A stretch of 64,000 bases of DNA from Nitrospirota bacterium (lineage in GTDB: Bacteria > Nitrospirota > Thermodesulfovibrionia > Thermodesulfovibrionales > Magnetobacteriaceae): positions 450-64,449 of the forward strand of contig JADFYO010000015.1 in assembly GCA_015233015.1 (NCBI GenBank), read 5' to 3'. The translations under genes and the position numbers were made by a program. Each line of letters starts with the position of its first letter. Within the stretch, counting starts at the first letter, position 1. Below are positions 26,313 through 63,602 of this stretch, in pieces. The notes under the pieces are model-generated. The model ran no database searches and was not told the DNA's origin. It was given only the letters and a program-made list of their open reading frames with translations.

Positions 26313-26379
26313 TGCGTTGCCGATTGACAGGAATTATTAGTTTGTATTATCCTGACAAGGCAACGGGAGGGGGAGTTTT

Positions 26380-29780: not shown

Positions 29781-29828
29781 TTAGACTTTGTTGTGTAGTG
29801 ATGTATTTGTTTTAAGGAGAGATGGCTA

Positions 29829-31599: not shown

Positions 31600-31601
31600 A
31601 A

Positions 31602-33593: not shown

Positions 33594-33607
33594 GGAGAGG
33601 TATAAAA

Positions 33608-35308: not shown

Positions 35309-35344
35309 TGTGGGGAATGCGGCGGGATGCAATGGAGGAACAAT

Positions 35345-36442: not shown

Positions 36443-36460
36443 GAGAGAGCCTTGCAGAGT

Positions 36461-36544
36461 CTGTCATTCCCGCCTGCGAGCGGCAATCCTGTTCTCGCTC
36501 AATTTTCTTAAAAGACTGGATTCCTGCTTCCGCAGGAATGACAG
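36461..36544. repeat. imperfect palindromic intergenic element (gtcattcc...ggaatgac type)
   Basis: ctgtcattcccgcctgcgagcggcaatcc at 36461-36489 pairs with ggattcctgcttccgcaggaatgacag at 36518-36544. Each arm is itself a small hairpin. Confidence 0.55.
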
Positions 36545-36595
36545 GTTTTATAATCTATTCATGTGATTGTATTTTAGATTGGGCACTGGAGACAT

Positions 36596-37699
36596 ATGGC
36601 TGCTAAGCGAAGGCTTACAACCGGTTATCAAGCGATTTCCGGCACAGTAAGCTTTCTTTTCGATGTTCCTCTGGCGATTATTCTTCTCATTTTGGCCAGT
36701 CCCCTGATGCTCATTATAGCAATCGCGGTAAAATTGACAGACGGAGGGCCGGTATTTTATCGTGGAGACAGGCTGGGTAAAGATAAAAAGATATTTACAA
36801 TGTACAAGTTCCGGACATTAATCCCCGACGCCGAACGCATAATAGGCGCTGAGCTGTTGACATCGCAGCATAATATTGTAACTAAAGTCGGGAGATGTCT
36901 CAGGGAGACAAGGTTGGATGAGCTTCCCCAACTATATAACATCCTAAAAAGGGATATGACATTTATGGGGCCGCGCCCTGAGCGCGTGGCGATATATAAG
37001 AAGTTCTGCCAGGGTATCAGAGGTTATGACATGAGATTCACGGTACCCCCCGGGTTAATCGGATATTCCCAGCTCTTCACACCCCACAGTACACCCAAAA
37101 GAATGCGCACACTTATTGACAATATGTACATTCATAGAAAGCAGAATATCTTTGTTGACCACATCCTGGTTGTTTATACCGCATACCTGGCGCTAAAGCA
37201 TGTGCCGACTAAAGTTGTTTTCAGAGCGTCCCATGACCTTGCAATGCGCCTGATTGGACGCGGCGGGAACAAGAGATTCCATGAAAGGGTCCATCATCAA
37301 GACGCCAGAGCTTATTATGGCCATAAAAATCATTTGACACAGGTCAATACATTAGTAAATAATAAAGATAACGCCGCACACATGAATGATAGACAGATGA
37401 AGGTTTACTTCGGTAGTGACGGGCAATTTGCCGGAGAGGGCTTGTTAATAAACGTCAACGAGGACGCCTTTTTGATGTTCACTGACAAACAGGTCAAAGA
37501 CGCCGATTATTTTAAGCTTGAGATCGTGGCTAAGAATAAGAAGAAAACAGCCTATTGTGACGGTGTGATATATAAAGAATACGCCTCCGGCAATAATGAT
37601 TATCAGTATGCCTACGTTTATAACTACACGCCCGCCTCTCCATTGAACTCGTACATAATTCACCAGTATTTCCTCCACAAGAGTGTGGCTGAGGTATGA
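36596..37699 (+). CDS. priming sugar-phosphate transferase with a PilZ-like C-terminal extension, paralogue 2
   Basis: Collinear with 35345-36442. The tail carries KRFHER (RxxxR) and GEGLLINVNEDAFLM. Confidence 0.75.
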   Translation: MAAKRRLTTGYQAISGTVSFLFDVPLAIILLILASPLMLIIAIAVKLTDGGPVFYRGDRLGKDKKIFTMYKFRTLIPDAERIIGAELLTSQHNIVTKVGRCLRETRLDELPQLYNILKRDMTFMGPRPERVAIYKKFCQGIRGYDMRFTVPPGLIGYSQLFTPHSTPKRMRTLIDNMYIHRKQNIFVDHILVVYTAYLALKHVPTKVVFRASHDLAMRLIGRGGNKRFHERVHHQDARAYYGHKNHLTQVNTLVNNKDNAAHMNDRQMKVYFGSDGQFAGEGLLINVNEDAFLMFTDKQVKDADYFKLEIVAKNKKKTAYCDGVIYKEYASGNNDYQYAYVYNYTPASPLNSYIIHQYFLHKSVAEV

Positions 37700-39096
37700 G
37701 AGCGCTTATCTCTTCGGTGATTGCGCGCCCTTTAGAGTCGCTTCTGTATATTACAGTTTTACTTACCGTAGCAATAATCATGACCACCCCGTATTATTAT
37801 GTGGCTTTAATTGTGCCGCTGCTGGTACTTTTTATTATGATGTCGAACAGGAAGCCTGCCTATGTTTATTATATGATTGTTTTCCTTATCCCGTTTGGAG
37901 CATACAGAACCTTATCCGAGGCCGGCCACATAAAGATTCATTACCTGTTAGCGGTAATCCTGATTTTATATTTATTATTTAAATCGTTTAATATGCGGCA
38001 TCTGCCGTCCGAACTAAAAAGCAATTTATGGCCTTTTATGATTTCTCTCTATGTGGTAACCATTCTAACCGCTATGTACTCTCCTTATCCTGAAGACGCA
38101 TATCCTATGTTAGCCCAGTTTGCGGCCGCAATAGCGTTTATTACCATAGGGATGTATTTTATAGACAAGGAAGCCCTGGTTAAGCAAATTCCGGCTATAG
38201 TGGTATATAGCGTGACGCTGAGTTCGTTCCTTGGGGTTATAGGCTATCTCTTTAACATAGCTCTTTTTGCGCAAAAGACAGAAGTGGAGGGCGAATTTAA
38301 AAGAGGTATGGGAGGCTCTATGGACCCGAATAATACCGCCCTTATTATTCTCTTTGTCTTGCCTCTTGTGGCGGAAATGGTTACATGGGCCAAAAATCAG
38401 ACATATAAATTGTTATACATGGCTTTTTATGTAATAAATATGCTGGCTATTTATTACACGTGGTCAAGAAGTGGAGCAATTTTTGGAATTTTGATAACGG
38501 CTGTTATTTTTCTCAGGCACGTAAAGAAAATAAACGTGAATCTCATATTTTTACAAATATTTTTTGTATTGCTTATAGGAGCTGTTGTTATTGGGGCGTT
38601 GCCTGAAAAATATATGAAGCATTTTGGGAATATAACCGAATCTAAACAGGACGCGTCAATAGAAAGACGCGGTACCTATGTTACAGTTGCGTTGGATTCA
38701 TTTATGAAGCATCCTTTAATAGGGACGGGATTAGGTACGTTCAGGGATATTTATGCCGAGACCGATATTGCCCGCAAGTTTTCGAGATCTGGTGAGGACC
38801 TGCGGCGTTTCGCGCATAACACCTATCTTGAATATCTGGTTGGAGTAAGCTCCATAGGGTTATTGTGTTTTATTGCGCTGGAGCTGCGGGTGGTGCTTAA
38901 TTTCTATACAGCGAGGAAAAACTTCCTTAAAAATGGCGAAGAGTTATACGCGTCATATTCCGCGGCATATATGTTCTCATTCATAGCTGTTATATTGTAT
39001 TTGTTCATGTTTAGCGAGGCATTTCATAAAGTCTTTCTTCTGTCGGTATCGATTGCCCATGTTGCACACAGGTTATCTCTGGAGAAAAAGCAGTGA
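37696..39096 (+). CDS. O-antigen polymerase/ligase family (Wzy-like) membrane protein
   Basis: 466 aa and polytopic, with the motifs YYTWSRSGAIFG and GTGLGTF...FAHNTYLEYL. Confidence 0.75.
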   Translation: MRALISSVIARPLESLLYITVLLTVAIIMTTPYYYVALIVPLLVLFIMMSNRKPAYVYYMIVFLIPFGAYRTLSEAGHIKIHYLLAVILILYLLFKSFNMRHLPSELKSNLWPFMISLYVVTILTAMYSPYPEDAYPMLAQFAAAIAFITIGMYFIDKEALVKQIPAIVVYSVTLSSFLGVIGYLFNIALFAQKTEVEGEFKRGMGGSMDPNNTALIILFVLPLVAEMVTWAKNQTYKLLYMAFYVINMLAIYYTWSRSGAIFGILITAVIFLRHVKKINVNLIFLQIFFVLLIGAVVIGALPEKYMKHFGNITESKQDASIERRGTYVTVALDSFMKHPLIGTGLGTFRDIYAETDIARKFSRSGEDLRRFAHNTYLEYLVGVSSIGLLCFIALELRVVLNFYTARKNFLKNGEELYASYSAAYMFSFIAVILYLFMFSEAFHKVFLLSVSIAHVAHRLSLEKKQ

Positions 39097-40259
39097 TTAC
39101 GCTGTCCTCGGCGGTTTTTGTGCTTTCAGCCCTGATGATTATCTCGTTTTTTTTTCTTAATCCCCTGCTTATATATATTTCGTATCTGATAAGTTCAAAA
39201 AAAGAACCAATATTCAAACCATTCTCAGCGTCCATATCTTTAATAATCGTTGTTCATAATGGAGAGAAACAAATCGCGGCAAAGCTGGATAATTCACTTT
39301 CTCTCGATTATGGAACTGAAGATTATGAGATAATAGTGGTCTCCGACGGTTCTACCGACAAGACCGATGAGATAGTTAAAGGATATAAGGACAAACACAT
39401 ACGCTTTATAAGGATGGACGGGCACATCGGGAAATATGCAGGAATGAACGCGGCGGCAGAGGCGGCAAAAGGAGAGATTTTGGTCTTTTCCGACGCCGAC
39501 GGCATGATCTCCATGGGTGCGATACCTGCCCTTCTCAGACACTTTTCCGACCTCGGCATCGGAGGTGTTTCAGGACTTCGTGTCATAGGCGAGAGTGGAA
39601 ACCTTAAAGACGCCCAGCGTTTCTATGTTAGTTTTGACTCCGGCATTAAAAGAATGGAGAGCCTTACGGGAAGCATCTCATCGAATGAAGGCAAACTCTA
39701 CGCCGCCAGAAAATCGCTCTATACGCCGGTTCCCCCCTCCGTCACAGACGACACCTTTGTCCATCTTGCGATTGTAAGGCAGGGCTACAGGTTTATTTTT
39801 GAGAATAACGCCACTGTTGTGATTAATACGCCGTCAAGAAATCCCCAACACGAAATCATACGGCGTAAGAGGATTGTTACCACAAGCCTCAGGGGAATTG
39901 CAATTCATAGTGAGCTTTTAAACCCATTTAAATACGGGGCATTTTCTATTCATCTTTTTATCAACAAGGTGTTGAGGCGTTTCCTTCCGGTTTTTTTGAT
40001 CACCCTGTTTATAAGTTCCCTGATGCTGGCATATTTAAACATATCATTTGCCGTATTTTTTGGCCTTCAGACGGCGTTTTATGCCTCCGGTATATTTTAC
40101 CTGCTGGTATTGTCCCGAATTAGAAAGATTAAACTGATTACGCGCTTATTTTCAGTTGCGTTTTACTTTCAGTTAGGAAACTATGGTACACTACTTGGGT
40201 TGATAGATTTTCTGAGAGGAAAAGAGGTCGTTAAATGGGTACCGCTGAAAAATGACTGA
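39093..40259 (+). CDS. membrane-associated family 2 glycosyltransferase
   Basis: Motifs are SLIIVVHNGE, VVSDGSTDKT and FSDADG, with N- and C-terminal TM helices. Confidence 0.8.
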   Translation: MITLSSAVFVLSALMIISFFFLNPLLIYISYLISSKKEPIFKPFSASISLIIVVHNGEKQIAAKLDNSLSLDYGTEDYEIIVVSDGSTDKTDEIVKGYKDKHIRFIRMDGHIGKYAGMNAAAEAAKGEILVFSDADGMISMGAIPALLRHFSDLGIGGVSGLRVIGESGNLKDAQRFYVSFDSGIKRMESLTGSISSNEGKLYAARKSLYTPVPPSVTDDTFVHLAIVRQGYRFIFENNATVVINTPSRNPQHEIIRRKRIVTTSLRGIAIHSELLNPFKYGAFSIHLFINKVLRRFLPVFLITLFISSLMLAYLNISFAVFFGLQTAFYASGIFYLLVLSRIRKIKLITRLFSVAFYFQLGNYGTLLGLIDFLRGKEVVKWVPLKND

Positions 40260-41376
40260 AAAATCTGCCGTTTCACCGGCTGTTTTGATAATTTCGTTAG
40301 CAAAGCACTATGGGGGCGCGGAGGTGCGGGTTATAGAGACGGCCGAGCTTCTTCATGACAAATGCCGTTATGGAGTTGTAACAATGAAAGGCTCCCCTAT
40401 AGAGCAGAAACTTCGGGATAGGGGACTCAATACGTTTCCTATTTCTACCAGCAAGGCAAGCCCGTCCATTCTTCTCAGCATTTGTAAGATAATCATGGAA
40501 GGCGGTTTTAACGTTGTTGACGCCCATAGTCCGCAGGGTCAGTTTTGGGGACTGTTGGCGGCCATTTTAACCCGAACGCCGTTTAAGGTATGCACAGTCC
40601 ACAGCAGTTATGGCCTGACAGAAAAGGGAATAAGGAAATTGCTTTATGTGATGGTTTTAAGGCTGAATATGTTTTTTGACATCCCTTTTGTGTCCGTATC
40701 GGAGGCGGTAAGCACTTATCTCACTGGTCTTGGCGCAAAGCAGGACAGGGTAACGCTTATCCGCAACGGTATTTCGATGCCTGACTCCGGTCAGATAGAC
40801 GCACTCAGGGAAAGACAGAGGACTGCCTTCGGCTTAAAGAAAGACGATTTTGTCATAATCAGCGTGGGGCGTCTGGAGCCGGTAAAAGGCCATATCTATT
40901 TATTAGAAGCCGTTAACACCCTCAAAGGCCGCTATGCAATAAAATGTTTAATCGTTGGCGACGGGCGTGATTTTAATTCGTTAAATGAGCGAATAGCGGC
41001 ACTGGGCATATCGAACGAGGTGAGGCTGCTTGGATTTCGCACCGATGTCGATGAGCTGCTTCCTATGGCGGATGTCTTTTGCATGCCTTCTCTGTCTGAG
41101 GGACTGCCATACGCGCTTTTAGAGGCATGTGCCGCGGAACTGCCCATAGTGGCCTCAAATATCGGGGGCATGGCTCATCTGCTGAAAAATGGGGAAACGG
41201 CGATTTTGGTACAGCCTGAGAATGTCCTTGAGCTTGTCAATGCGCTAGTGTATATAAGAGATAATCCCCTTAAGGGTAAGGCGATGGGCAAAGAGGCGTA
41301 TGCGGTAGTTAAAAATGAATTCTCGATAGAAACCATGCGCGGGCATATGCTCGATGTGTATGGGTTAAGGGGGTAG
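40252..41376 (+). CDS. family 4 (GT-B) glycosyltransferase
   Basis: The EX7E region is SEGLPYALLEACAAELPIVASNIGG. Confidence 0.85.
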   Translation: MTEKSAVSPAVLIISLAKHYGGAEVRVIETAELLHDKCRYGVVTMKGSPIEQKLRDRGLNTFPISTSKASPSILLSICKIIMEGGFNVVDAHSPQGQFWGLLAAILTRTPFKVCTVHSSYGLTEKGIRKLLYVMVLRLNMFFDIPFVSVSEAVSTYLTGLGAKQDRVTLIRNGISMPDSGQIDALRERQRTAFGLKKDDFVIISVGRLEPVKGHIYLLEAVNTLKGRYAIKCLIVGDGRDFNSLNERIAALGISNEVRLLGFRTDVDELLPMADVFCMPSLSEGLPYALLEACAAELPIVASNIGGMAHLLKNGETAILVQPENVLELVNALVYIRDNPLKGKAMGKEAYAVVKNEFSIETMRGHMLDVYGLRG

Positions 41377-41384
41377 GAGGACAG

Positions 41385-42398
41385 ATGGGCAGGAAAATTA
41401 TATGGGCACTATTGATGCTGCTATTAACTCAAGGCGTTTCGGCAGCACTTGAGCAGGGGAGTTTACCGGGGAATTGGCGGCCATTTTCAGACGACTCACC
41501 GTGGAATAAGCCGATACCGGCCGATGCTAAAACTCATACAGACTCTGCTGTGATAATGAAAACCATTGTTTCCGAGGCTAAGAACATACGTCTGACCAAG
41601 ATTTACGCCTACCCTATATGGGTTGTCAATTCAAAAAAGGTCCCGCTGACAAAGGTCAGAAGCACAAGAATATACGACACATGGGATAAGAAGAGGACTG
41701 GCATAAGCGATGTGGCAATCCCTGTGACAAGGGAGATGTGGGGAGAGCCTACCGATGACGGCCACATTTGCATTGTCGATCCGGCAGCCGGACTTTCATG
41801 GGAAATGTCCGTATATCATTGGAGAAAAGACGATGAAACCCCTCGCTGCAACACATTTAACATCTGGAACCTGAAAGGTAAGGGTGTAGGAAATCATAAA
41901 GAGAGCGAAAGGTGGTATCTGATAGGCGGACGTGGGTCTGGCTTCCCGCTAATCGCAGGCGTTATACGTCCAGAGGAGCTTAGACAGGGTGAGATAAGAC
42001 ATGCTATGATCTTTACGTTTCCTAAGAACAGGAAACCGGACAGGGGCGACGCCATATTTATTTCGCCGGCTGCCAGAAGCGACGGTGCGGTTAAGGGCGT
42101 TGAATATCCTATCGAGGGAATGCGCTTCCAGCTTAATCCAGCCCTGACCGATAAGGATTTCGATAGTTGGGGGTTAAACAGGGAAGGAAAGATTTTGGCC
42201 AGAGCACTGCAAAAATATGGGATGTTCCTCGGCGACAATGGCGGAGCAATGGCGCTTCAGGCACAGCTTCTTGCCCCTGATTCAAATGAAAACCAGGAGA
42301 AGTGGAGCAGTTTATTCCCGGGTTTTTATAGAAATGTCGAAAAAATACCAACAGATCGGTTTCGTGTAATTTATACCGGCGAACCAGTGGTCAAATAG
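41385..42398 (+). CDS. secreted hypothetical protein in the EPS locus (possible glycan-active enzyme)
   Basis: The signal peptide is LLMLLLTQGVSAA. No family recognised. Confidence 0.45.
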   Translation: MGRKIIWALLMLLLTQGVSAALEQGSLPGNWRPFSDDSPWNKPIPADAKTHTDSAVIMKTIVSEAKNIRLTKIYAYPIWVVNSKKVPLTKVRSTRIYDTWDKKRTGISDVAIPVTREMWGEPTDDGHICIVDPAAGLSWEMSVYHWRKDDETPRCNTFNIWNLKGKGVGNHKESERWYLIGGRGSGFPLIAGVIRPEELRQGEIRHAMIFTFPKNRKPDRGDAIFISPAARSDGAVKGVEYPIEGMRFQLNPALTDKDFDSWGLNREGKILARALQKYGMFLGDNGGAMALQAQLLAPDSNENQEKWSSLFPGFYRNVEKIPTDRFRVIYTGEPVVK

Positions 42399-42428
42399 CG
42401 GTATCACATGCGATAATACAGGGGGCAT

Positions 42429-43475
42429 ATGCGTTTTCAGTTCATGGATATCGCTAAAGGGATTGGTATAGCGCTTGTGGTATTTGGACACAGCGATCTG
42501 CTGCCAGACATTAAATCCCCTGAGTCCTATATTTATATAAAAAGAATAATCTATGTCTTTCATATGCCGCTTTTCTTCGTCATTTCCGGGTACTTATTAG
42601 TAAGCAATATAAATATTGCAGACAATTTGTCCGATTACTATTCGTTTGTAAAGAAGAAGTCGGCAAAATTGCTTTTACCTTATATGTCAATATCTATAGG
42701 TCTGATTGTCATAAAGCTGATAGGCCGGATGTTTACGCATATACAGTATCCTGTGGACAGGATGTCATTTTATAATTTGTTTCTGCAGCCGGACGAAGGG
42801 GCTGTGATGCACTTATGGTTTGTTTATGTTTTATTTATGATGTATGTGACTGTTCCATTATCTTACAAGGTATCACATAATATTAATATAGTCATGGCCG
42901 GCTCATTATTGTTATTATTATTTGCATGGCCTTCTGTTTTTGAACTAAATAACTTATTAGAACACCTTCCATTTTTTATCGGCGGGATTATCTTCTACAG
43001 GTACGATTTGTTAAATAAATGTAATCCGTATATCGCCTTATTTTCTTTATTAATTGTCTTTATCGCCGGAGTATCTCTGATGAACATGGCCCCTGATTAT
43101 TGGAAACTGACTTATTGGGAGCTTTCTTATAGTTATAAGATAATAAAGACAGTTACCAGTTTATCGGGTGCATGTATGGTTATATTTGTGTCGATAATAA
43201 TAGTTTCACTGAATGATTGTCTGGCTATGCCTGAATCAATATTGAGATTGTTCGGCATATACTCTGCTTCCATTTATTTTCTACATACCTTCTTTCTTGG
43301 AGCTGTCAAGGTATTTATTGTCAGGATTATGCATGTAGATACAAGTTTTTGGTTACCCATGACGGTTAAGTGTCTGGCAGGGCTGCTTTTACCTGTCATC
43401 TTCGAGAAATATATCCTTGACCGTACGCCATTAATAAGGAAATACCTGATTGGCGTCAGTAAGCCGGTCAGATAA
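42429..43475 (+). CDS. acyltransferase family 3 membrane protein
   Basis: The N-terminus is MDIAKGIGIALVVFGH, and the protein has about 10 TM helices. Confidence 0.7.
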   Translation: MRFQFMDIAKGIGIALVVFGHSDLLPDIKSPESYIYIKRIIYVFHMPLFFVISGYLLVSNINIADNLSDYYSFVKKKSAKLLLPYMSISIGLIVIKLIGRMFTHIQYPVDRMSFYNLFLQPDEGAVMHLWFVYVLFMMYVTVPLSYKVSHNINIVMAGSLLLLLFAWPSVFELNNLLEHLPFFIGGIIFYRYDLLNKCNPYIALFSLLIVFIAGVSLMNMAPDYWKLTYWELSYSYKIIKTVTSLSGACMVIFVSIIIVSLNDCLAMPESILRLFGIYSASIYFLHTFFLGAVKVFIVRIMHVDTSFWLPMTVKCLAGLLLPVIFEKYILDRTPLIRKYLIGVSKPVR

Positions 43476-46503: not shown

Positions 46504-49500
46504 TTGACGTTAGATATAGTGGCCGCTGGCAGCTTCCCTTTTAATAACCAAAACCTTTTTTCCAATAATTATCTGCAATATATCTTACCAGAATCTGACC
46601 TTTGGAAACAGCGGAGTCCGAAGGCCAGAGAGGCGTATGAATCCATAAAAGTGCATTATGAAAAAATAAGGGAATTAAATTTAGGTACGGGCCAGGAGGC
46701 CGAATTAGAAGATAAATTTATCAGACCAGTTATCTCTGCCCTTGGTTATGAGTACTCCGTGCAACCTGTTACCCAACGTAATAGTGCTACGAAGAAAAGG
46801 CCGGATTACGCCTTATTTAAGGATTTAGAGGCACGAACTACCGCGTACGCCGAAAAGGACAACCTTAAAAAGTTTTATTCCTGCGCGATAACCATTATTG
46901 AGGCAAAACACTGGGGACGCCGCCTTAATGACACTGACAGAGGCGATACCATCGACAGCCGCGACCCCACGGCACAGACAATAAAATACCTTGAGGATGT
47001 TCACTACCACAGCGGCGGCCTGACAAACTGGGCTTTTCTCACAAATGGAAAGACCTGGAGGCTGTTTTATTACAGGGCAAGCTCCAAAGTGGGGAACTAT
47101 TACGAGGTTGACCTCGAGGAGATAATTCTAAACGGCGACGCGGAGAGTTTCTTGTATTTTTACCTGTTTTTCGCGAAAGACGCCTTAATTGAAGACCCTG
47201 CCACCGGAAAAACATGGCTTGAGCAGCACTTAAAAGGCTCTGAGGATTATGCCGTAAGGGTCTCCGAAAGGCTCAGAGATCTTATATTTGACGAGGTATT
47301 TGAGCTTCTGGCCGCAGGTTTTATTCACTTTAGAAAGACGGCGCTCTCTATTGTGAATGAAACACAGGAGAACAGGGAGGCAATATTCAAAGGCTGCCTG
47401 ACACTGCTTTACCGCCTCCTGTTTTTACTATACGCAGAAAGCCGAAACCTCCTTCCAATGGATAACGGTCATTACAGAAAGATTAGTCTATCGTCGGTAA
47501 AAGAGGCCGTCAGCAATGATATCGTAACTAACGGAATCGCCGGAATGAGCAGAAACATGTATAGCTATTGGGCAAGACTTGACGGCATATTCGGGATAGT
47601 CTCAAAAGGCGACCCCGGCATGAACGTACCGGTATATAACGGAGGGTTATTCGAGGCGTCGAAATCCGGCATCCTCAAAGACCATAAAATCGCCGACCCC
47701 TTCATAGCCAGGGCATTAGAGCTGCTTACAGTTGATAATGATGGGCATTTGACCAGCCGGTTTATCGATTATTCGTCCCTTGGCGTTCGTCATCTTGGCG
47801 ACATCTATGAGGGACTGTTAGAGTTTCGGCTGCAAATTGCAGACGAGGACATCGCCGAGGTCAGGGAAAATGGCAAGTCTCTCTGGAGAAAGGCCGCAGA
47901 TGTAAACCCAGCGGCGAAGACATTTAAAAATAAGCCTAAGGGAGAGGCGTATATCGAAAACTCAAAGCACGAGAGAAAGTCCACAGGTTCATATTACACG
48001 CCGCATTACGTAGTGCAGTTCATAGTTGAACACACCGCCGCCCCTGTCCTCGATAAAAAACTGAACGAGGTGGAGGCTATGCTTTCAGAGCTTAGGCAGA
48101 CCAAATCGGCACTCAAAAAACAGAGGGCAACTGCCTCGATACAAGGGTACAGGGATAAAATAACGCACCTTGAAGAGGCAATATTTACAAGGCTTTTCGA
48201 TATTAAAGTCCTTGACCCATCAATGGGAAGCGGACACTTTTTAGTTCATGCCGTGGATTTCATCTCCGATAAGATAGCGGCGTTTCTCGCAGGTTACCCC
48301 GACAATCCGGTTATTGACAGGATCCTTGCCCAGCGAAAAGATATTATGGCAGAGACTGCTAAACAGGGGGTGAGGATTGACGAGGGCCGCCTTACAGAGG
48401 TAACCCTGATAAAGCGTCTGGTGATGAAAAGATGTATATATGGCGTTGATAGTAATGATATGGCGGTGGAACTTGCCAAACTTTCTCTCTGGCTTGATTG
48501 CTTTACAGTAGGCGCCCCGCTGTCGTTTATCGATCACCATCTGAAGTGCGGCAACAGCCTTATTGGCGTGCAGGATATTTCAGGCGTTGTACTGCCAAAT
48601 ACAAACGAATTCTCAAAATTTCAGCGCGCCCTCTCCTTTATTATACAGGTCTCGGAATTAACTGATTCCACCATCGACGAGGCAAAAAGAAGCTATGCCC
48701 TTTTCAAAGATTCAGCCGAGGAGCTTGCCCCGATTCGCAGGAGATTTGACGTAAACGTGGCTAAACATTTCATGGATATTTGTGAAATAGTAAGCCGTAT
48801 GGAGCATCTGGCCTATACGCTGGAGTTTGAGAAAGAGCCGTTTCCGGAGGTAGTCGAGGCATGTAATAAGGCCCTGCAAATAGCAAGAGAACATCGCTTC
48901 TTTCACTGGAGGCTGGAGTTTCCCGAAGTCTTCTATACCGTCAGCGGTGAGAGGGACACGCCAGGATTTGACTGCGTCATTGGCAACCCGCCCTATATCA
49001 ATATTATGCTTATAGCCGACGAGCAGATAAAATATTTAAAGAAGACTTACAAGACCGCAAGGAGACGATTTGACCTGTACGTACTGTTTTGCGAGCTGGC
49101 CGTAACACTACTCAAACGAGACGGCTATCATTCCTTTATCGTTCCCGATAAAATCCTCAGCGAAACATACGCCGCGTCTTTAAGAGAGATGCTTATTAAG
49201 GAATATAAGATAACAAATTTATTGAATTTAAAGAACATTAAGGTGTTTTACGAGGCCGCCGTAAAACCTGTTATTTATGTCATCGAGAATAAACCGGCAG
49301 AGGTTGGCAACGAGATAGCTGTCGAAACACCCCTGAATGACGCCTTAAAGGATATGGAAAAGGCAGTGGTCTGCCAGCATGATTTCCTGAAAATGCCGGA
49401 GTTCAGAATAAGATTCGAGTGGTCGCAGGGGATTGAAACAATAATAGATAAGATCGATAGGGTATCGTTTCCCGCGTCGAGGGTTCTTTATATTAGCTGG

Positions 49501-50631
49501 GGGGCACAGCCCGGCGTTAAAAATAACTTTATATATCATGGGACTGACTATGAATGTTCCAATCCCACCGGAGTTTGCGATGCCCGCCAGTGTCAACTGA
49601 ACAGGGGAAACTGTAAGGCATTAATAAAGGGGAGCGCTATCGGGCGGTATAGTGTCGAATACGAAAATGGTCATATTCTTTATGATATGAAAAAATTGCA
49701 CAGGCCAGCCTTCCCTGAGCTGTTTGAAAACGAAAAAATAGTTGTATGTGAAGTAACAGGTGAAAAAGGGTTAATTGCCGCGTATGATAATCTGAAATAT
49801 TATACAGACCACTCATTGATAAATTGTATATTAAAATTTCATTTACGGGACATCTCCGCGGAGTTGCAGACTGGGCGCGGGATACAATTTGTAGATTATG
49901 AACGGGATGAGAATGAACCCAATGGTAACAAAATATATGACAGGGATACGATTATTTACAAAGACGACCTTATGGCCAGCGAAAAATATAGCCTGAAGTT
50001 TATTCTATCGCTGATTAACTCCAGTGTAATAGGGTATTTTTATAAAAAATATGTTAGTGGGCAGCTTAACGTCTTCCCCGAACATATCAGGAAATTGCCG
50101 GTATTTGCCGTAGATTTCTCAACACCGGTTAATGAGAGAGAGAAAACCCTATCTGAGATTTCCAAACTCTATTCAGATAATAAATATGAAGAGATTCTAA
50201 GCATGGCAGTCAAAGAGCTTTCCATCTCGCGGGGCGATACAGTACACGACACACTTGCCTTTCTCGCAGGGGAGATGCACAGGTTAAATACTGCCAAAAA
50301 TAAGGAAGAGGCAGGGTTTCTTAAATGGCTTGAGCGTGGAATCGGCGCCGAAATAAAGGATTTAACAGGTAAAACTCAACTCAGGCACTATCACAAGTAT
50401 AAATTCGGCGAAATCCTCACAGTCCTCATAAAAAATAAGAATAAACTCTCAATCAACCTTTCTCAAAGGGAGAAACAGGAATTGCTGGAAACAGAATTTA
50501 CCAATAGCAAATCGATTCTCGCGCCGCTGAATACAAAAATCGACAACACGGACATTCTGATAGACAATATTGTATATAAACTATATGGCATGACGGAGGA
50601 GGAAGTAAAAATAATAGAAGGTTGCCGATAA
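46504..50631 (+). CDS. Type IIG restriction-modification fusion enzyme (PD-ExK nuclease + gamma-class N6-adenine methyltransferase + specificity region)
   Basis: 1375 aa. RPDYALF...IIEAKHWG is PD-(D/E)xK-like. TGSYYTP, DPSMGSGHFL (motif I) and VIGNPPYI (motif IV) mark the methyltransferase. The long C-terminal TRD-like region is of the Eco57I/MmeI architecture class. Confidence 0.8.
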   Translation: MTLDIVAAGSFPFNNQNLFSNNYLQYILPESDLWKQRSPKAREAYESIKVHYEKIRELNLGTGQEAELEDKFIRPVISALGYEYSVQPVTQRNSATKKRPDYALFKDLEARTTAYAEKDNLKKFYSCAITIIEAKHWGRRLNDTDRGDTIDSRDPTAQTIKYLEDVHYHSGGLTNWAFLTNGKTWRLFYYRASSKVGNYYEVDLEEIILNGDAESFLYFYLFFAKDALIEDPATGKTWLEQHLKGSEDYAVRVSERLRDLIFDEVFELLAAGFIHFRKTALSIVNETQENREAIFKGCLTLLYRLLFLLYAESRNLLPMDNGHYRKISLSSVKEAVSNDIVTNGIAGMSRNMYSYWARLDGIFGIVSKGDPGMNVPVYNGGLFEASKSGILKDHKIADPFIARALELLTVDNDGHLTSRFIDYSSLGVRHLGDIYEGLLEFRLQIADEDIAEVRENGKSLWRKAADVNPAAKTFKNKPKGEAYIENSKHERKSTGSYYTPHYVVQFIVEHTAAPVLDKKLNEVEAMLSELRQTKSALKKQRATASIQGYRDKITHLEEAIFTRLFDIKVLDPSMGSGHFLVHAVDFISDKIAAFLAGYPDNPVIDRILAQRKDIMAETAKQGVRIDEGRLTEVTLIKRLVMKRCIYGVDSNDMAVELAKLSLWLDCFTVGAPLSFIDHHLKCGNSLIGVQDISGVVLPNTNEFSKFQRALSFIIQVSELTDSTIDEAKRSYALFKDSAEELAPIRRRFDVNVAKHFMDICEIVSRMEHLAYTLEFEKEPFPEVVEACNKALQIAREHRFFHWRLEFPEVFYTVSGERDTPGFDCVIGNPPYINIMLIADEQIKYLKKTYKTARRRFDLYVLFCELAVTLLKRDGYHSFIVPDKILSETYAASLREMLIKEYKITNLLNLKNIKVFYEAAVKPVIYVIENKPAEVGNEIAVETPLNDALKDMEKAVVCQHDFLKMPEFRIRFEWSQGIETIIDKIDRVSFPASRVLYISWGAQPGVKNNFIYHGTDYECSNPTGVCDARQCQLNRGNCKALIKGSAIGRYSVEYENGHILYDMKKLHRPAFPELFENEKIVVCEVTGEKGLIAAYDNLKYYTDHSLINCILKFHLRDISAELQTGRGIQFVDYERDENEPNGNKIYDRDTIIYKDDLMASEKYSLKFILSLINSSVIGYFYKKYVSGQLNVFPEHIRKLPVFAVDFSTPVNEREKTLSEISKLYSDNKYEEILSMAVKELSISRGDTVHDTLAFLAGEMHRLNTAKNKEEAGFLKWLERGIGAEIKDLTGKTQLRHYHKYKFGEILTVLIKNKNKLSINLSQREKQELLETEFTNSKSILAPLNTKIDNTDILIDNIVYKLYGMTEEEVKIIEGCR

Positions 50632-57450: not shown

Positions 57451-58104
57451 ATGGAAGGCAAGAGCGGCAATATGGGCGGCAATATGGGCGGCAATATGGG
57501 CGGCAATAACGTCGGCGGCGATAACGCAGGCAATATCGTTAGTAACCGTTCCCAGAAGAGGCAGCGCTCTGTATATGCCGACAGGCTGAATATCCTGATA
57601 GCGGCTGTCATAGGGATAGCGGTCATTCTTGCTGTTATCGTATCGGTTATCATGGTCAAATATTATGGTCAGGCTCAGGGACAGATTCAGGGAGCAAGCG
57701 CCTCTATGTCATCGCAGGGCGCCATTGCCTTTGCGGTTGTATTCCTTAGTTACTTAGTTGTCTCGATATTTCTGGTCATATTTTTTGTGTACCGGATACT
57801 AAGCCCGTTTAGGCGGCTGCTCAGGGATATGGACGCAATCATCGGGGGGGACATAAAAAGACGCCTTTTATTGCGCGATGAGGATGTCTTTCTAATCAAG
57901 GAGTTTGTCCTGGGCGTAAATACTATCGTTGCCAAACTGGAGCAAATGCATCTTGTTAAAGATGAATTTGTCGTCCACCTAGACGCCGAGGGGCAGCAGC
58001 TGCTTTCCCTTCTCGAACAGGACAAAGGAATGAGCAGCAAGGCCAGAGAGGCAGTCATATCATATCACAACAAGTTTATCACCATCGTCAAAGATAAGAT
58101 CTGA
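57451..58104 (+). CDS. two-TM membrane protein with a GNMG-repeat N-terminus and a HAMP-like segment
   Basis: 217 aa. The N-terminus carries (GNMG)x3. The region after TM2 (PFRRLLRDMDAIIGGDIKRRL...VNTIVAKLEQM) resembles a HAMP linker. Confidence 0.5.
   Translation: MEGKSGNMGGNMGGNMGGNNVGGDNAGNIVSNRSQKRQRSVYADRLNILIAAVIGIAVILAVIVSVIMVKYYGQAQGQIQGASASMSSQGAIAFAVVFLSYLVVSIFLVIFFVYRILSPFRRLLRDMDAIIGGDIKRRLLLRDEDVFLIKEFVLGVNTIVAKLEQMHLVKDEFVVHLDAEGQQLLSLLEQDKGMSSKAREAVISYHNKFITIVKDKI
57465..57510 (+). repeat. in-frame 12-bp tandem repeat (gcggcaatatgg, 3 full units plus 1 partial)
   Basis: Direct reading of 57465-57510. Confidence 0.85.
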
Positions 58105-58170: not shown

Positions 58171-61100
58171 ATGTTAATGCAAATAAATTACGAGCTGAAA
58201 TTAAAATGGGGATTTATTCTCATCGCCGAAGTGGACAGTGGGCGGCTGTCTTTGCGTTTATCCCCCAGCGGCGGCGATAAACTCCCCGACTGTGTTTTTC
58301 ATTGGGGGGTATGTGCCGGTAAATCCACGAAATGGCAGTTGCCCCCTGATACCCTTCGTCCGCCCTGCACTAAACCAGCGGGAGCAGCGTCAGTTCAAAC
58401 GCCTTTCACACCCATCAGCCAGTCAGTATCTGTCCTTGAGTTTGCCGTCAGCGACGCCCTGCCGTTTGCATCTATTGAGTTTGTCCTTTTTTTCCCCGGC
58501 GAAAACAGATGGGACAACAATAACGGAAAAAACTACCGGATTGAACTGCAAAACTCAGGAGTAATTCCGTCGTCCCCCGAATTGCCGTCAGAATTGACCC
58601 CTGAATTGCCGACAGAATTACCTTCTGTTGCCGGCAGTATTGCCGAATTGAACCACACATTTGACAATGGGCGGCGGTTATATGCCGCAGTTACAAATAC
58701 TGACGGCGGTTATGCCCTTGACCTGTTCACCAGTTTAACCCCTGCTCCGGTGACGCTTCACTGGGGGACAGCCACGGCAAGGGGCGGCGGGTGGCTCGCG
58801 CCGCCGGTTGAAATATCACCCCCTGAGGGTTCTCTTCTCTGCGGCACTGCCGTAGACTCTCCGCTTAGTTTTGTATCAGGCGTTGGACACTTTCATCTGG
58901 AAGTTCCCGCTGAGTGTGCACCTCCTTTTTTCACATTTGTCTTACATCTGCCTTCAACCTGCCGATGGCTCAATTGCGGCGGGCAGAATTTCTACATTCC
59001 CATAGCGCCCCAGCCCGGCAATCTTATCGATGAAAATCTAAGCGAATACGCCGACGAAATTATAAACGCCGAAATGAACGGCAACTCATGGACGCTTATG
59101 CACAGGTTTAATCTGTGTTACAGGCTTTGTGAGCGGCTTGGGGGGAATGCGGAGGGCCTTGCGCTTCTTTTTGTCTGGCTGCGCTACTCCGCGATGAGGC
59201 AGCTTGACTGGCAGCGTAATTACAACACGCAGCCGCGTGAGTTGAGCCATGCCGAGGACCGCCTGACACTCAAACTTACGGAGATTTATATTAACAACCC
59301 TCAGGCACGCCCGCTTATCCCGCTCATGATGATGACGATGGGGCCGGGCGGCGATGGGCAGCGCATCAGAGACGAAATCCTACAGATAATGCACCGCCAC
59401 AGGATTAAGGAGGTCACCGGCCATTTCCTTGAAGAGTGGCATCAAAAGCTCCATAACAATGCCACTGCCGACGATGTAGTAATCTGCGAGGCCTATCTGG
59501 CCTTCCTGCGAGCTAACGGCGACCGCGGCAGGTTCTATGAGGTATTAAACAGCGGCGGCGTTACAGAGGAGCGTTTAAGGGGCTTTGAACGGCCAATAAA
59601 AACGCACCCGGACTTCGTCCCTCATCTTAAAGATGCCCTGATACACGATTTCGAGGCCTATTTAAAGACCTTAAAGTCAGTCCACTCATCGACCGACCTT
59701 GACCGCGCCCTAAGAACCTCATCCAACCTGTTTGACAACGATATTAAAAACGCCCTAAATTTCATAGGACAAAACAAGGAATTATATGATTCAGACAAAA
59801 TTAAAGACCTCTTTGCCACGGCAACATGGGTTCGCAGCAGGCTAAGGCAGCTCTTAAGCACTGAAAGAGACACGCAAAGGGCGAGGGAGATGCTTATGCT
59901 TGACCTGTCCCTTGTCGAGTTCATTCGCCTTATAGCAGAGCGCTCTGAGAATCAGGACAAGTCAGCGCTCATCGAATATGTCTGTTTAGCCGCCGAAAAC
60001 ATAATAGGCTCAGGCAGCCGCGTTGACGAGGAACTTCTCATTTGTATTGGACATCTGAGAAATCTCCCGCCGCCGGGCGCTCCTGACTGGGTGTTGCACG
60101 TCATCAGTGTTACAGAGCGGCTCGAGCGAATACTTGGCGGTGCCGTTGAGTGGTATTATAAGACATTTCAGGGAAAGGCCGAATTCCTCGGAAGGGCATT
60201 CCACGCCGCATCATGGACGGTTAACCTGTTCACTGAGGAACTGCTTCGCGGTCAGCCGCCCTTTGTCCTTTCGATCTTATTAAGACGCCTCAATCAGGTA
60301 CTCAGAAAAGAGTATAACCTCGGAGTCTGGCAGGTGATAAGCCCCTTTCAGGCAAGCGGAAAGGTTATCGCCGTCGATACGCTTCATCAGATTCAGGACA
60401 AGACCTTCGACGAAGCGGCCGTTGTCATTGCGGGAAAGGTGGCGGGTGACGAGGAAGTTCCCCGTGGAGTTACAGCCGTAATATCTCCCGATATGACAGA
60501 TATAGTGTCGCATGTGGCAGTAAGGGCAAGAAATGCCCGCGTACTGTTTGCGGCATGTTACGATGCCGCCATCTTAGAGGCACTTAAAGCCTTGTCGGGG
60601 CGTTACGTCTCACTCACAATAACCCCATCAGGCGGAGTTGCCTTCGATGAGACGACACAACCCGCAATATCGGATATAATAAATTCTCAGGACGCAAGAT
60701 ATGTCTTAACCGCGCCTCGCTTTGAGTTTACCACGTTTGCAATGTCTATAATTAATCTTAACCGTGCCGTTGCTGGGGGCAAGTCAACGAACCTTGCCGC
60801 CCTCAGAGGTAACGTCCCAGGCTGGATAAACCTGCCGCCATCAGTCGTAATCCCATTCGGGGCAATGGAGAAGGTCATCAGCCTCAACCCTGAAATAGGG
60901 TCCCAATACACCGGTCTTTTAGGAGACGCAACGCGTCAGACGCTGCCCAAGCTGCGTACATTAATAGAGAAGCTGATAATCCCCGATGAGTTTATGTTGG
61001 GTTTAGCCGTGGTCATGTCAGAAGCCGGGGTTTCGTATCCCGCGCCAGAGGGGCAGCGTGCCGCGGAGTGTATAAAGAAGGTATGGGCCTCACTCTGGAA

Positions 61101-61674
61101 TGAACGTGCATTTTTGAGCCGCTTGAATAACTTCGCCGGCAATCCCCACGAGGGCATCTCGATGGCGGTGCTTATTCAGGAGATAATCAAGGCTGACTAT
61201 GCCTTTGTAGTTCACACGGTAAATCCTGTAACCGGCGCAAAGGACGAGATATTCGCCGAGGTAGTGCTGGGGCTTGGAGAGACCCTTGTGGGAAACCACC
61301 CCGGGCGCGCGCTGAGTTTCACGTGTAAAAAAGACGGCGGCACCCCAAACGTCGCGGCGTATCCGGGTAAGAGTTATGGACTTTATGCCGACGGCCTTAT
61401 ATTTCGTTCTGACTCCAATGTTGAAGACCTGTCGGGGTATGCCGGGGCGGGGCTATACGATTCGATTACTATGAGAGAGCCTGAGAGCAAACTGCTCGAT
61501 TATTCGTCAAATCCCATCCTCAGAGAAGAGGCATTCAGAAACAGTTTGCTGTCAAAAATAAAAGAAATTGGCGTAACGGTAGAGAAGGCCTTCGGCAGTC
61601 CGCAGGATATCGAGGGTGCATATGCCAATGGCCAGTTCTATGTGCTGCAAAGCCGCCCGCAGGTTGGAATATAG
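58171..61674 (+). CDS. alpha-glucan, water dikinase (GWD)-like enzyme
   Basis: 1167 aa. Two CBM45-like modules are present (VFHWGV..W..PP...IEFVLFF..NRWDNNNGKNYRIEL; VTLHWGT..W..PP...FTFVLH...RWLNCGGQNFYIPI). The phosphohistidine segment is ISPDMTDIVSHVAVRARNARVLFAACYD. The C-terminal PPDK_N-type nucleotide-binding domain has GGKSTNLAALRG, GLGETLVG, FRSDSNVEDLSGYAGAGLYDS and PQDIEG. The domain order matches that of plant GWD. Confidence 0.85.
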   Translation: MLMQINYELKLKWGFILIAEVDSGRLSLRLSPSGGDKLPDCVFHWGVCAGKSTKWQLPPDTLRPPCTKPAGAASVQTPFTPISQSVSVLEFAVSDALPFASIEFVLFFPGENRWDNNNGKNYRIELQNSGVIPSSPELPSELTPELPTELPSVAGSIAELNHTFDNGRRLYAAVTNTDGGYALDLFTSLTPAPVTLHWGTATARGGGWLAPPVEISPPEGSLLCGTAVDSPLSFVSGVGHFHLEVPAECAPPFFTFVLHLPSTCRWLNCGGQNFYIPIAPQPGNLIDENLSEYADEIINAEMNGNSWTLMHRFNLCYRLCERLGGNAEGLALLFVWLRYSAMRQLDWQRNYNTQPRELSHAEDRLTLKLTEIYINNPQARPLIPLMMMTMGPGGDGQRIRDEILQIMHRHRIKEVTGHFLEEWHQKLHNNATADDVVICEAYLAFLRANGDRGRFYEVLNSGGVTEERLRGFERPIKTHPDFVPHLKDALIHDFEAYLKTLKSVHSSTDLDRALRTSSNLFDNDIKNALNFIGQNKELYDSDKIKDLFATATWVRSRLRQLLSTERDTQRAREMLMLDLSLVEFIRLIAERSENQDKSALIEYVCLAAENIIGSGSRVDEELLICIGHLRNLPPPGAPDWVLHVISVTERLERILGGAVEWYYKTFQGKAEFLGRAFHAASWTVNLFTEELLRGQPPFVLSILLRRLNQVLRKEYNLGVWQVISPFQASGKVIAVDTLHQIQDKTFDEAAVVIAGKVAGDEEVPRGVTAVISPDMTDIVSHVAVRARNARVLFAACYDAAILEALKALSGRYVSLTITPSGGVAFDETTQPAISDIINSQDARYVLTAPRFEFTTFAMSIINLNRAVAGGKSTNLAALRGNVPGWINLPPSVVIPFGAMEKVISLNPEIGSQYTGLLGDATRQTLPKLRTLIEKLIIPDEFMLGLAVVMSEAGVSYPAPEGQRAAECIKKVWASLWNERAFLSRLNNFAGNPHEGISMAVLIQEIIKADYAFVVHTVNPVTGAKDEIFAEVVLGLGETLVGNHPGRALSFTCKKDGGTPNVAAYPGKSYGLYADGLIFRSDSNVEDLSGYAGAGLYDSITMREPESKLLDYSSNPILREEAFRNSLLSKIKEIGVTVEKAFGSPQDIEGAYANGQFYVLQSRPQVGI

Positions 61675-61883: not shown

Positions 61884-62102
61884 CTATAGGTTATTAAACT
61901 CCTCCGTCGATATATTCGCTTGTTTTATCAGTTTTTTCAAAATGCCAGGGCCAAGTTCGGGATGTAGAGGTATGGACAATGTGTATTCATAACCTTCTTT
62001 TGTCATCATTACATGAGAGCCTTTCTGTCTTGCCACAATCCAACCGGCCCTTTTAAATTTACTGATTGTCTCGATGCCGGAACAAAGTCTTAATCGGTGC
62101 AC
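61884..62102 (-). CDS. hicA: HicA mRNA-interferase toxin
   Basis: GWIVARQKGSHVMMTKEG is the HicA core. The GTG start abuts the hicB stop. Confidence 0.8.
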   Translation of the reverse strand: MHRLRLCSGIETISKFKRAGWIVARQKGSHVMMTKEGYEYTLSIPLHPELGPGILKKLIKQANISTEEFNNL

Positions 62103-62303
62103 TCAAACATTAACCTCGATAAGCTCTCCCTTGGAGTACTCACTTTTTGAGTTCATCACCTCAAGCCATCCCTCTATTGCTTCATGTATGTTTTGGATCG
62201 CTTCTTCCCTTGTCTTGCCTTGGGAGAGGCAGCCAGGCAGCGCCATCACTTCAACTACAAAATAGCCTGCCTCGTCTTGCTCTATATGTAACTGCAATTT
62301 CAT
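62103..62303 (-). CDS. hicB: HicB-family antitoxin
   Basis: The core motif is ALPGCLSQGKTREEAIQNIHEAIEGWLE. Confidence 0.8.
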   Translation of the reverse strand: MKLQLHIEQDEAGYFVVEVMALPGCLSQGKTREEAIQNIHEAIEGWLEVMNSKSEYSKGELIEVNV

Positions 62304-62531: not shown

Positions 62532-63506
62532 TTATCCCGCATTCATAAACTGAGTATTCATAAACTGCACAACTTCCTTCCTACTTCCCAAAAACACGGG
62601 AGTCCGTGAGTGTATCTCCTGGGGTTTGGCCTGAAGAATGTCGCCTTTGCCTTCGGTTGACATACCACCGGCCTGTTCCACTATCATTGCCATAGGGAGC
62701 ACCTCATAGAGCATCCTCAGTTTCCCTTTTTTACTCTTTGCGTCAGCGGGATAGGCAAATATGCCTCCTTTCAGAAGTGTCCTGTGGACATCGGCAACCA
62801 TAGTGCCGCTAAACCGCGCAGTGTAGCCCTCGTCTTTGAGGTCATCGAAATAATCCCGTATCTTCTTATCCCATCCCTTAGAGTTGGATTCGTTTACCGA
62901 GTATATCTTCCCGCTCTCAGGTATCCTCATATCCTTGTGAGACAATAAAAATAGTCCGACCGAAGGGTCAAGCGTGAATGCGTTTAAGCCCGTCCCCGTA
63001 GTGTATGCAAACACCGACGACGAGCCGTAGATAACATAACCGGCTGCTATCTGCTTATCTCCTCCCTGGAGGAAGTCTTCGTGGGTGCCGGTATTTTTTC
63101 TGTATATGGAGAATATTGTCCCGATGCTGACGTTTACTTCGATATTGCTTGAGCCGTCGAGGGGGTCAAAGGCTATGACGTATTTGCCTTCACTTCCTTT
63201 ATCGGGATAGATAACGTCGTCGAGTTCCTCGGAGGCTATGGCGAAGAATTGCCCGCTGTCGGACAGCACCCTTATGAGGACATTGTTGGCGAATTCGTCC
63301 AGTTTTTGTACTTCCTCGCCCTGTACGTTTATCTTCTGTGCCTTTCCGAATATCTCCGCAAGCCCGGCCATTCTCACGTGTGAGGCGATAATTTTTGTAG
63401 CGGTCTCAATGGCCATCAACGCTATGGACAATGAGCCCGTGGCGCTGGGATATTTCCTCTCTTCCTCTAAAATATACCTGTTCAGATCCATTCCTATATT
63501 CGGCAT
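62532..63506 (-). CDS. fbp: class 1 fructose-1,6-bisphosphatase
   Basis: Motifs are FDPLDGSSN, YGSSS and GKLRMLYEVLPMAMIVEQAGG. The start is taken at MPNIGMDLNRY (63506), which is preceded by GGAGG. Confidence 0.9.
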   Translation of the reverse strand: MPNIGMDLNRYILEEERKYPSATGSLSIALMAIETATKIIASHVRMAGLAEIFGKAQKINVQGEEVQKLDEFANNVLIRVLSDSGQFFAIASEELDDVIYPDKGSEGKYVIAFDPLDGSSNIEVNVSIGTIFSIYRKNTGTHEDFLQGGDKQIAAGYVIYGSSSVFAYTTGTGLNAFTLDPSVGLFLLSHKDMRIPESGKIYSVNESNSKGWDKKIRDYFDDLKDEGYTARFSGTMVADVHRTLLKGGIFAYPADAKSKKGKLRMLYEVLPMAMIVEQAGGMSTEGKGDILQAKPQEIHSRTPVFLGSRKEVVQFMNTQFMNAG

Positions 63507-63602
63507 TATAGTTACCTCCTCGTGATGGTAGTCACGATATTTTAACATAATAATATGACCGGCTCATGTACTTTTTTTCAGACAACATGATAGTATCATA
63601 GT

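Follow-up and report, generated by a model that had tools for sequence, protein, structure and literature searches.

Can a bacterium carry the complete starch-phosphorylating enzyme of plants, and what would the enzyme do there? The question is raised by a gene at positions 58171..61674 of a 64-kb stretch of DNA from a Nitrospirota bacterium (contig JADFYO010000015.1; below, "the window" means this whole stretch of 64,000 nucleotides). Glucan, water dikinase (GWD) is seen as a defining trait of eukaryotes that accumulate starch, having arisen together with the primary plastid (PMC6260743), and a 2025 paper leaves it open whether bacterial glycogen is phosphorylated, allowing for "perhaps no glucan phosphate" in bacteria (PMC13011383). 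Bacterial homologues as such are already known: automated annotation pipelines have named them, and a few are shown in one tree from 2018. The gene described here specifies a homologue with the full architecture of the plant enzyme, intact and under selection, which suggests that some bacteria may phosphorylate their storage glucan as plants do starch before breakdown.

The dikinase homologue and its domains

The gene is one uninterrupted open reading frame (ORF) of 1167 codons on the forward strand with zero internal stops. The database gene call (P0001) is identical in sequence and starts two codons later (1165 residues). We delimited the following features.

58171..61674 (+): GWD1-type (type A, see below) glucan, water dikinase homologue, 1167 residues; ORF, Pfam PF23166 (twice), PF22973 and PF01326, cotton GWD1 alignment, dN/dS
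58183..58551 (+): CBM45-like beta module 1, residues ~5-127; Ig_N_CWD1, alignment with plant CBM45-1, all-beta model
58552..58635 (+): predicted disordered inter-module linker with (P)ELPxELxP repeat, residues 128-155; translation, Tandem Repeats Finder (TRF), model confidence (pLDDT)
58636..59001 (+): CBM45-like beta module 2, residues ~156-277; second Ig_N_CWD1 stretch, collinear with plant CBM45-2, repeat of module 1
59032..60315 (+): all-alpha central domain, residues ~288-715; match to PDB 9ha9/9qvi, helical model
60328..60660 (+): phosphohistidine (swivelling) domain, residues ~720-830; Pfam GWD1_pHisD, SHVAVRARN alignment
60511..60513 (+): predicted catalytic His781 codon; aligned with the plant catalytic His
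60748..61671 (+): ATP-binding domain, residues ~860-1167; Pfam PPDK_N, Foldseek, cotton GWD1 motifs

Three Pfam families, each with a curated cut-off of 27 bits, are matched by the protein: Ig_N_CWD1 (PF23166; 110.6 bits in total over two N-terminal stretches), GWD1_pHisD (PF22973; 128.7 bits, residues 720-829) and PPDK_N (PF01326; 92.8 bits, in the C-terminal region). Of the proteins with solved structures, the central domain of potato chloroplastic GWD1 gives the strongest match (9ha9_A/9qvi_A; E 7.7e-72, residues 295-715). When the plant central domain served as query, the matches were all fragments of about its own length; a full-length plant GWD1 was obtained from a search of representative sequences: P0238, which is cotton GWD1 by its NCBI/UniRef name. 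In BLASTP, the two proteins align collinearly with 633 bits and 38% identity over 1052 columns (window protein 168-1165, cotton GWD1 438-1471). The resemblance to GWD is far beyond chance, and the likeness to the plant enzyme extends over the whole architecture, as an earlier reading of the letters alone (the sequence-only reading) had proposed: the GWD-specific Pfam families, the central-domain match and the collinear cotton alignment all bear this out. An AlphaFold2 model of the full-length protein (from an alignment of 53 sequences) comprises five domains, with a mean predicted local distance difference test (pLDDT) score of 83.8 and a predicted template modelling (pTM) score of 0.69. The window gene is thus a genuine GWD1-type dikinase family member from a bacterium, with its architecture pared to a minimum.

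The catalytic half can be read residue by residue. The phosphohistidine segment in the window is PDMTDIVSHVAVRARNARVLFAACYD, as the sequence-only reading had it, and the plant motif that it quoted was essentially right, since cotton GWD1 reads PDMPDVLSHVSVRARNCKVCFATCFD. His781 lies in SHVAVRARN, aligned with the plant SHVSVRARN, and is invariant in 53 homologues. The motifs attributed to the nucleotide-binding domain (GGKS.N, WAS.WNERAF, GLGETLVG, FRSDSN.EDL.GYAGAGLYDS and QDIEG) are every one present, and the alignment of this domain to cotton GWD1 takes in GGKS, WASxWNERA, QEII (E1004-I1006), GLGETLVG, FRSDSNxEDL and QDIEG. The central domain holds FTEELLR (E689, E690 and R693) and R712, with W720 just past its end. 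In the model, the His domain is small and alpha/beta, and the nucleotide-binding domain is alpha/beta as well. A Foldseek search with the full-length model found the ATP-binding domain to resemble that of rifampin phosphotransferase (5hv6; E 1e-9, template modelling (TM) score 0.75 on the target); it returned no GWD1 central-domain entry, so the assignment of the central domain is by sequence only.

A study of potato GWD1 (StGWD1) from 2026 describes the same five-domain plan, and there too the structural neighbour of the ATP domain is rifampin phosphotransferase (PMC13553574). In StGWD1, H992 is the catalytic His; E900, E901 and R904 sit on a central-domain helix that faces it and may act as proton donor and stabiliser; R923 and W931 belong to the interface; the His is polarised by E971; V989 and L990 dock in a hydrophobic pocket; and E1225-I1227 contact the adenine (PMC13553574). 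Via the cotton GWD1 alignment, their counterparts in the window protein are as follows.

StGWD1 H992: window H781
StGWD1 E900/E901/R904: window E689/E690/R693
StGWD1 R923: window R712
StGWD1 W931: window W720
StGWD1 E971: window D760
StGWD1 V989/L990: window I778/V779
StGWD1 E1225-I1227: window E1004-I1006

All these residues have identical or conservative counterparts, most of them invariant in the 53 bacterial homologues.

At the N-terminus, the twofold HWG..W..PP...W.NNG pattern noted earlier is seen as H44-W45-G46/W55/W114-D-N-N and H197-W198-G199/W208/W266. The two modules are internal repeats of each other (30% identity, E 4e-10), and module 1 gives a separate alignment with plant CBM45-1 (32%, E 7e-13), one of the family 45 carbohydrate-binding modules (CBM). 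Invariant among the 53 bacterial homologues are H44, W45, G46, W55, F104, W114, N116 and N117 in module 1 and H197, W198, W208, F256 and W266 in module 2; the sole invariant positions of the N-terminal region are those that recur in both modules. Starch binding by the first CBM45 module of StGWD1 needs two Trp, as mutagenesis has established (PMC6243121, PMC13553574). Given a spacing of 55 residues in the cotton sequence, we infer that W55/W114 and W208/W266 correspond to this pair; both positions are retained in each module. The modules are modelled with confidence as beta-sandwiches (residues 5-125 and 156-277), module 1 being all-beta with block pLDDT mostly ~80-97. The linker between them is variable among homologues and predicted to be disordered (pLDDT <50 at residues 128-147); the short repeat reported there does exist, as PELPSELTPELPTELPS, encoded by a 12/24-nt tandem repeat (TRF; 58574..58645).

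Relatives in other bacteria and in eukaryotes

A scan of 185,579 species-representative prokaryotic genomes found relatives encoded in 344 genomes from at least seven phyla. The best 80 loci, nearly all from uncultured metagenome-assembled genomes (MAGs), belong to Nitrospirota (magnetotactic lineages and Sulfobium), Planctomycetota (Scalindua, Anammoxibacter), Verrucomicrobiota, Desulfobacterota, Acidobacteriota, Nitrospinota, Deferribacteres and Chromatiales. The flanking ORFs of these best 80 of the 344 relatives were clustered, and in 49 of 79 relatives' loci an alpha-glucan gene or a TIM-barrel partner occurs within 10 kb. Genes upstream or nearby include GH57/DUF3536, a GH57 branching enzyme, MalQ and GlgB; further downstream are a GH13 hDGE_amylase-like gene and DUF4912. 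The loci of the relatives point to a link between the bacterial family and alpha-glucan metabolism far more clearly than the window itself.

The full-length members are of two types, ~24% identical to each other: type A (79 of 97, the window protein included) and type B (18 of 97; monophyletic with a neighbour-joining bootstrap of 1.00). In type B, an N-terminal PF01261 TIM barrel stands in place of the CBM45 modules, while the pHisD and PPDK_N domains are kept (examples: L016:13389-16934, L015:13473-17015 and L075:13475-17119). The Joint Genome Institute (JGI) pipeline names type B "phosphoglucan, water dikinase" (PWD). A search with type B gave 1018 relatives at E <= 1e-10, and the TIM-barrel fusion architecture is found in all of the top 120. 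Of the 18 two-gene loci, 17 are A-to-B tandems in which type B comes second; at the other (L027) it lies upstream of A. One such tandem (L075) occurs in a related magnetotactic Nitrospirota genome, the paper on which reports glycogen synthesis and glgP genes and does not mention the dikinase (PMC10278575). Where enough downstream sequence was available (67 type A loci), the next gene 3′ of type A is a second dikinase paralogue, type B, in 21 (four of these are partial GWD-family ORFs that were not typed directly), and in another 20 it is a stand-alone xylose-isomerase-like TIM barrel (PF01261), 0-13 bp away. Bacteria thus carry a GWD-like/PWD-like pair, of which the window gene is the GWD-like member: in a tree without eukaryotic PWD sequences, its product clusters with type A and not with the PWD-like type B.

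The stand-alone TIM barrel (cluster c3; for example L032:3599-4444) was compared as a profile with solved proteins. It matches MJ1311 best (E 5e-14), then endonuclease IV (E 4e-4 to 0.02), level with or above sugar epimerases (UlaE, 0.011). Its invariant set of His, Asp and Glu residues suggests a metallo-phosphoesterase, and the TIM-barrel proteins are candidates for a phosphoglucan phosphatase outside the dual-specificity phosphatase (DSP) family, or for an acceptor domain. A 350-residue protein encoded after type B (c4; L016:16937-18025) has no Pfam match and a similar His/Asp-rich invariant set; its profile found no meaningful match among PDB sequences.

One full-length type A gene (L067) lies on a contig of 4193 bp with 0.29x coverage (JAIWHJ010000234.1) from a bin labelled "Promethearchaeota archaeon". 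In the tree its sequence groups with bacterial type A, and a bacterial contig put into the wrong bin is a likelier explanation than a GWD in an archaeon.

In an exhaustive search with the catalytic half of Setaria GWD1, which gave 383 representative clusters at E <= 1e-30, the bacterial type A protein P0016 ranked 11th with 43% identity; green-algal GWDs (Picocystis, Mesostigma) are similar at 45-47%, and by their source names the matches span alveolate, red-algal, cryptophyte, glaucophyte and green clades. We built a neighbour-joining tree (Kimura distances, 569 columns, 156 sequences, 200 bootstraps), which contains neither eukaryotic PWD nor a PpsA outgroup. Its deep nodes have a support of 0.2 or less, so that neither monophyly of bacterial type A nor a direction of transfer between bacteria and eukaryotes can be claimed. 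Glaucophyte GWD (P0283 from Gloeochaete; also P0280, MMETSP) falls among bacterial type A, and the Margulisiibacteriota protein P0357 beside the GWD of the red alga Cyanidium, both unsupported (bootstrap 0.10 or less). A bolder idea, which we offer tentatively and think rather doubtful, is that type A, type B and the endonuclease IV/MJ1311-like TIM-barrel metalloenzyme make up an old, self-contained bacterial system of glucan phosphorylation, ancestral to the archaeplastidal GWD/PWD pair, and that its carriers have a phosphate-bearing, possibly semi-crystalline storage glucan. The TIM barrel, right behind type A or fused to type B, would then replace SEX4/laforin or form the acceptor site.

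Proposed function and alternatives

We consider it probable that the product of the window gene is an active alpha-glucan, water dikinase of the GWD1 type whose substrate is the bacterium's own storage alpha-glucan, be it glycogen or a similar polymer of lower solubility. If it works as its homologue potato GWD1 does, ATP would be bound by the C-terminal domain; its beta-phosphate would pass to His781 on the swivelling His domain and its gamma-phosphate to water. The His domain would then swing onto the all-alpha central domain, where E689, E690 and R693 may aid transfer of the phosphate to a glucosyl hydroxyl, probably C6, while the two CBM45-like modules, each of low affinity, would grip the glucan chain throughout. 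Ordered chains that bear phosphate esters would become looser or more soluble, which would give glycogen phosphorylase (GlgP) and other glucan enzymes access. Catalytic activity, acceptor, C6 regiospecificity and physiological role are all extrapolated from homologues; confidence is higher for the dikinase chemistry than for the acceptor, and lowest for C6 specificity.

Several points weigh against this proposal. Since the glycogen of bacteria is as a rule soluble already, it is hard to see why a solubilising dikinase would be needed, and sequence cannot tell C6 from C3 specificity. Our literature search found no paper that characterises a bacterial GWD homologue. Foldseek with the two-module model against PDB gave generic two-domain Ig/Fab matches and weak matches to isoamylase N-termini and no CBM family, which leaves the CBM45-like assignment at the level of sequence. 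The TIM-barrel partner and the PWD-like paralogue, both frequent in other lineages, are absent from the neighbourhood of the gene in the window and from within 10 kb of it in the closest relatives. A glucan phosphatase, the laforin/SEX4-like kind that had been proposed as a check included, was found neither in the 64-kb window nor in the ±10 kb loci of the closest relatives (tblastn with c3 and c4, CX5R regular expression, Pfam on the larger ORFs). Finally, the dikinase gene is not clustered with glucan genes in the window. The genes that the sequence-only reading had cited as context are indeed there:

17388..20069 (+): glgP (glycogen phosphorylase), 893 residues; Pfam Phosphorylase, 1112 bits
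45102..46460: pgi
62532..63548 (-): fbp, adjoining the dikinase gene and convergent with it

As context they are weak, because none is in an operon with the dikinase gene: glgP is 38 kb and pgi 12 kb away, and the convergent fbp is not co-transcribed with it. No glgA, glgB, glgC, glgX or amylase gene was found within the window. The neighbourhood is compatible with a glucan role and says little more, and the glgP product is a likely downstream user of the same glucan although its gene is not linked.

The alternative that survives best, which we regard as unlikely, is a GWD-family dikinase with another acceptor or position: C3 or a pre-phosphorylated glucan as for PWD, a short maltodextrin, or a non-storage polysaccharide such as the exopolysaccharide of the window. 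The substrate of the window protein does rest on inference, no more than 38% of aligned residues are identical to plant GWD1, the protein has neither the DUF7067 insert nor the redox motif of plants, and a large polysaccharide-synthesis cluster lies in the window (~22.8-43.5 kb). That cluster, however, is more than 14 kb off and unlinked, and the neighbours of the relatives are enzymes of alpha-1,4/1,6-glucans, not exopolysaccharide genes. A PWD-like specificity sits poorly with the grouping in type A rather than in the well-supported type B, with the presence of CBM45-like modules and the lack of a CBM20 match in the protein at E <= 1 (Pfam), and with central-domain helper residues identical to those of GWD1.

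Far less credible is a phosphoenolpyruvate (PEP) synthase (PpsA) or a phosphotransferase of the rifampicin (Rph) or phenolic type, even though NCBI names some homologues "Phosphoenolpyruvate synthase" or "PEP/pyruvate-binding domain-containing protein" and the ATP-binding domain resembles that of rifampin phosphotransferase. The NCBIfam PpsA and Rph models score 25-78 bits against cut-offs of 598-1700, an order of magnitude too low, and match only residues ~962-1164. The domain order, from an N-terminal acceptor side to a C-terminal ATP domain, is that of GWD and the reverse of PpsA and Rph; Pfam finds neither a PEP-utilizers_C TIM barrel nor an Rph substrate domain; and among solved structures the middle 420 residues match GWD1 alone. 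With best scores of 78 bits against a cut-off of 883 (PpsA) and 64.8 against 999 (Rph), such an identity is effectively refuted at the sequence level, and the membership that the sequence-only reading had named as fatal to the GWD assignment does not obtain.

The proteins closest to the window protein, at 68-77% identity, are from Candidatus Magnetominusculus dajiuhuensis and related magnetotactic Nitrospirota MAGs, and the host is a Ca. Magnetominusculus-like bacterium. Seven related Nitrospirota genomes share, with 72-87% DNA identity, a syntenic block of five genes (methyltransferase, 217-residue membrane protein, GWD, fbp and queF), and dN/dS of the GWD gene is 0.14-0.19 against five orthologues. 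The synteny and the dN/dS show that the gene is vertically inherited and under purifying selection in the magnetotactic Nitrospirota clade. Contamination from a eukaryote (alga or plant), a chimeric assembly or a recently transferred gene in decay, which the long-held restriction of GWD to starch-accumulating eukaryotes (PMC6260743) and a G+C content (0.50-0.51) slightly above the window mean might suggest, is ruled out for practical purposes by this synteny and selection, by bacterial genes on both flanks in one contig, by the relatives in 344 prokaryotic species genomes and by an equally high G+C content in other parts of the window.

An intact, selected bacterial GWD of full architecture, within a family found in 344 species genomes, makes bacterial glycogen phosphorylation testable, and does so with a compact enzyme of 1167 residues that has neither transit peptide nor redox switch. 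To our knowledge, no full-length GWD structure exists; structural work on GWD and the enzymatic phosphorylation of starch or glycogen are possible uses of the protein. The GWD-like/PWD-like gene pair and the TIM-barrel partner bear on the evolution of starch metabolism, and the partner may reveal a non-DSP route for removing glucan phosphate. The main interest lies in the biology of bacterial glucan phosphorylation, the pairing of the two dikinases and the TIM-barrel partner.

Window neighbourhood and comparison with known systems

The dikinase gene is flanked by three small genes.

57451..58104 (+): 217-residue predicted membrane protein, 67 bp upstream of the dikinase gene; no Pfam match
61884..62102 (-): hicA toxin, in the gap between the dikinase gene and fbp
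62103..62303 (-): hicB antitoxin, in the same gap

The membrane protein has a low-complexity N-terminus (GNMGGNMGGNMGG) and two predicted transmembrane helices. Its gene (cluster c7) is directly upstream of the GWD gene in nine loci, all from the magnetotactic Nitrospirota clade and with confirmed synteny, and may be co-transcribed with it. The gap between the GWD gene and fbp measures 857 bp and contains the hicB/hicA pair; in relatives (L004, L047) it is only 37-148 bp and lacks the pair, which identifies the pair as a lineage-specific insertion. Scans of the window for tRNA and Rfam families found nothing, and a scan for promoters and terminators around the GWD gene was not informatively above the shuffled expectation.

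Elsewhere in the window, ~22889..43475 (+) is a large cluster for polysaccharide synthesis and export, unrelated to alpha-glucan genes (Wzx/Wzy/Wzz-like proteins, Poly_export, two Bac_transf, several GT2/GT4 glycosyltransferases, acyltransferases, a sulfatase-family protein and a deacetylase). Six tandem ORFs of 150-178 residues at 12824..15852 (+), in a zone of low G+C content (0.37-0.39), begin with signal-peptide-like sequences and match no Pfam family; they are two copies of a triplet (A-B-C, A′-B′-C′) with 49-67% identity between copies, and all six are distantly related to one another. A 1375-residue fused restriction-modification enzyme of the Eco57I/MmeI type (type IIG/IIL) is encoded at 46504..50631 (+), between pgi and aconitase.

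Of the known systems, StGWD1 and cotton GWD1 are the closest. The window protein has their domain order (CBM45-like, CBM45-like, all-alpha central, phosphohistidine, ATP-binding) and keeps the His motif, the EExxR helper helix, the interface residues, the adenine-contacting QEII and the Trp pairs of both CBMs. Land-plant GWD1 has a transit peptide, whereas the window protein is bacterial, cytoplasmic and without one. Between its CBM45 modules, cotton GWD1 has two DUF7067 (PF23229) repeats and a spacer; Pfam finds no PF23229 match in the window protein, where a disordered linker of 28 residues with the ELP repeat takes their place. The lack of the DUF7067 repeats and of the transit peptide makes the protein ~300 residues shorter than plant GWD1. 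Plant GWD1 is under redox control by a disulfide switch (PMC12892837). Where cotton, as a dicot GWD1, has CFATC, the window protein has LFAAC with the single Cys796, and with one Cys only it cannot form a switch of the plant type; Setaria GWD1 also lacks the first Cys of this motif. The DUF7067 repeats and the CFATC disulfide are marks of the land-plant subtype, not of the GWD family. The presumed substrate differs too, being a bacterial glycogen-like glucan instead of starch.

PWD (GWD3, EC 2.7.9.5) is a dikinase of the same superfamily and likewise has a phosphohistidine domain and an ATP domain of the PPDK_N type. It carries an N-terminal CBM20 (PMC11986951), in place of which the window protein has its two CBM45-like modules. 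With RPH, PEP synthase and pyruvate, phosphate dikinase (PPDK) the likeness is confined to an ATP-grasp-type nucleotide-binding domain and the chemistry of a swivelling phosphohistidine; their domain order is the reverse, and their pyruvate/PEP TIM barrel and rifampin-binding domain have no equivalent in the window protein.

In eukaryotes, the glucan phosphatases SEX4, LSF2 and laforin are the partners of GWD and PWD, and a functional counterpart would be expected if bacterial glucan phosphorylation is reversible. The window shows no DSP domain and no CX5R motif; what recurs beside the dikinase elsewhere among bacteria is instead a metal-dependent TIM barrel (PF01261).

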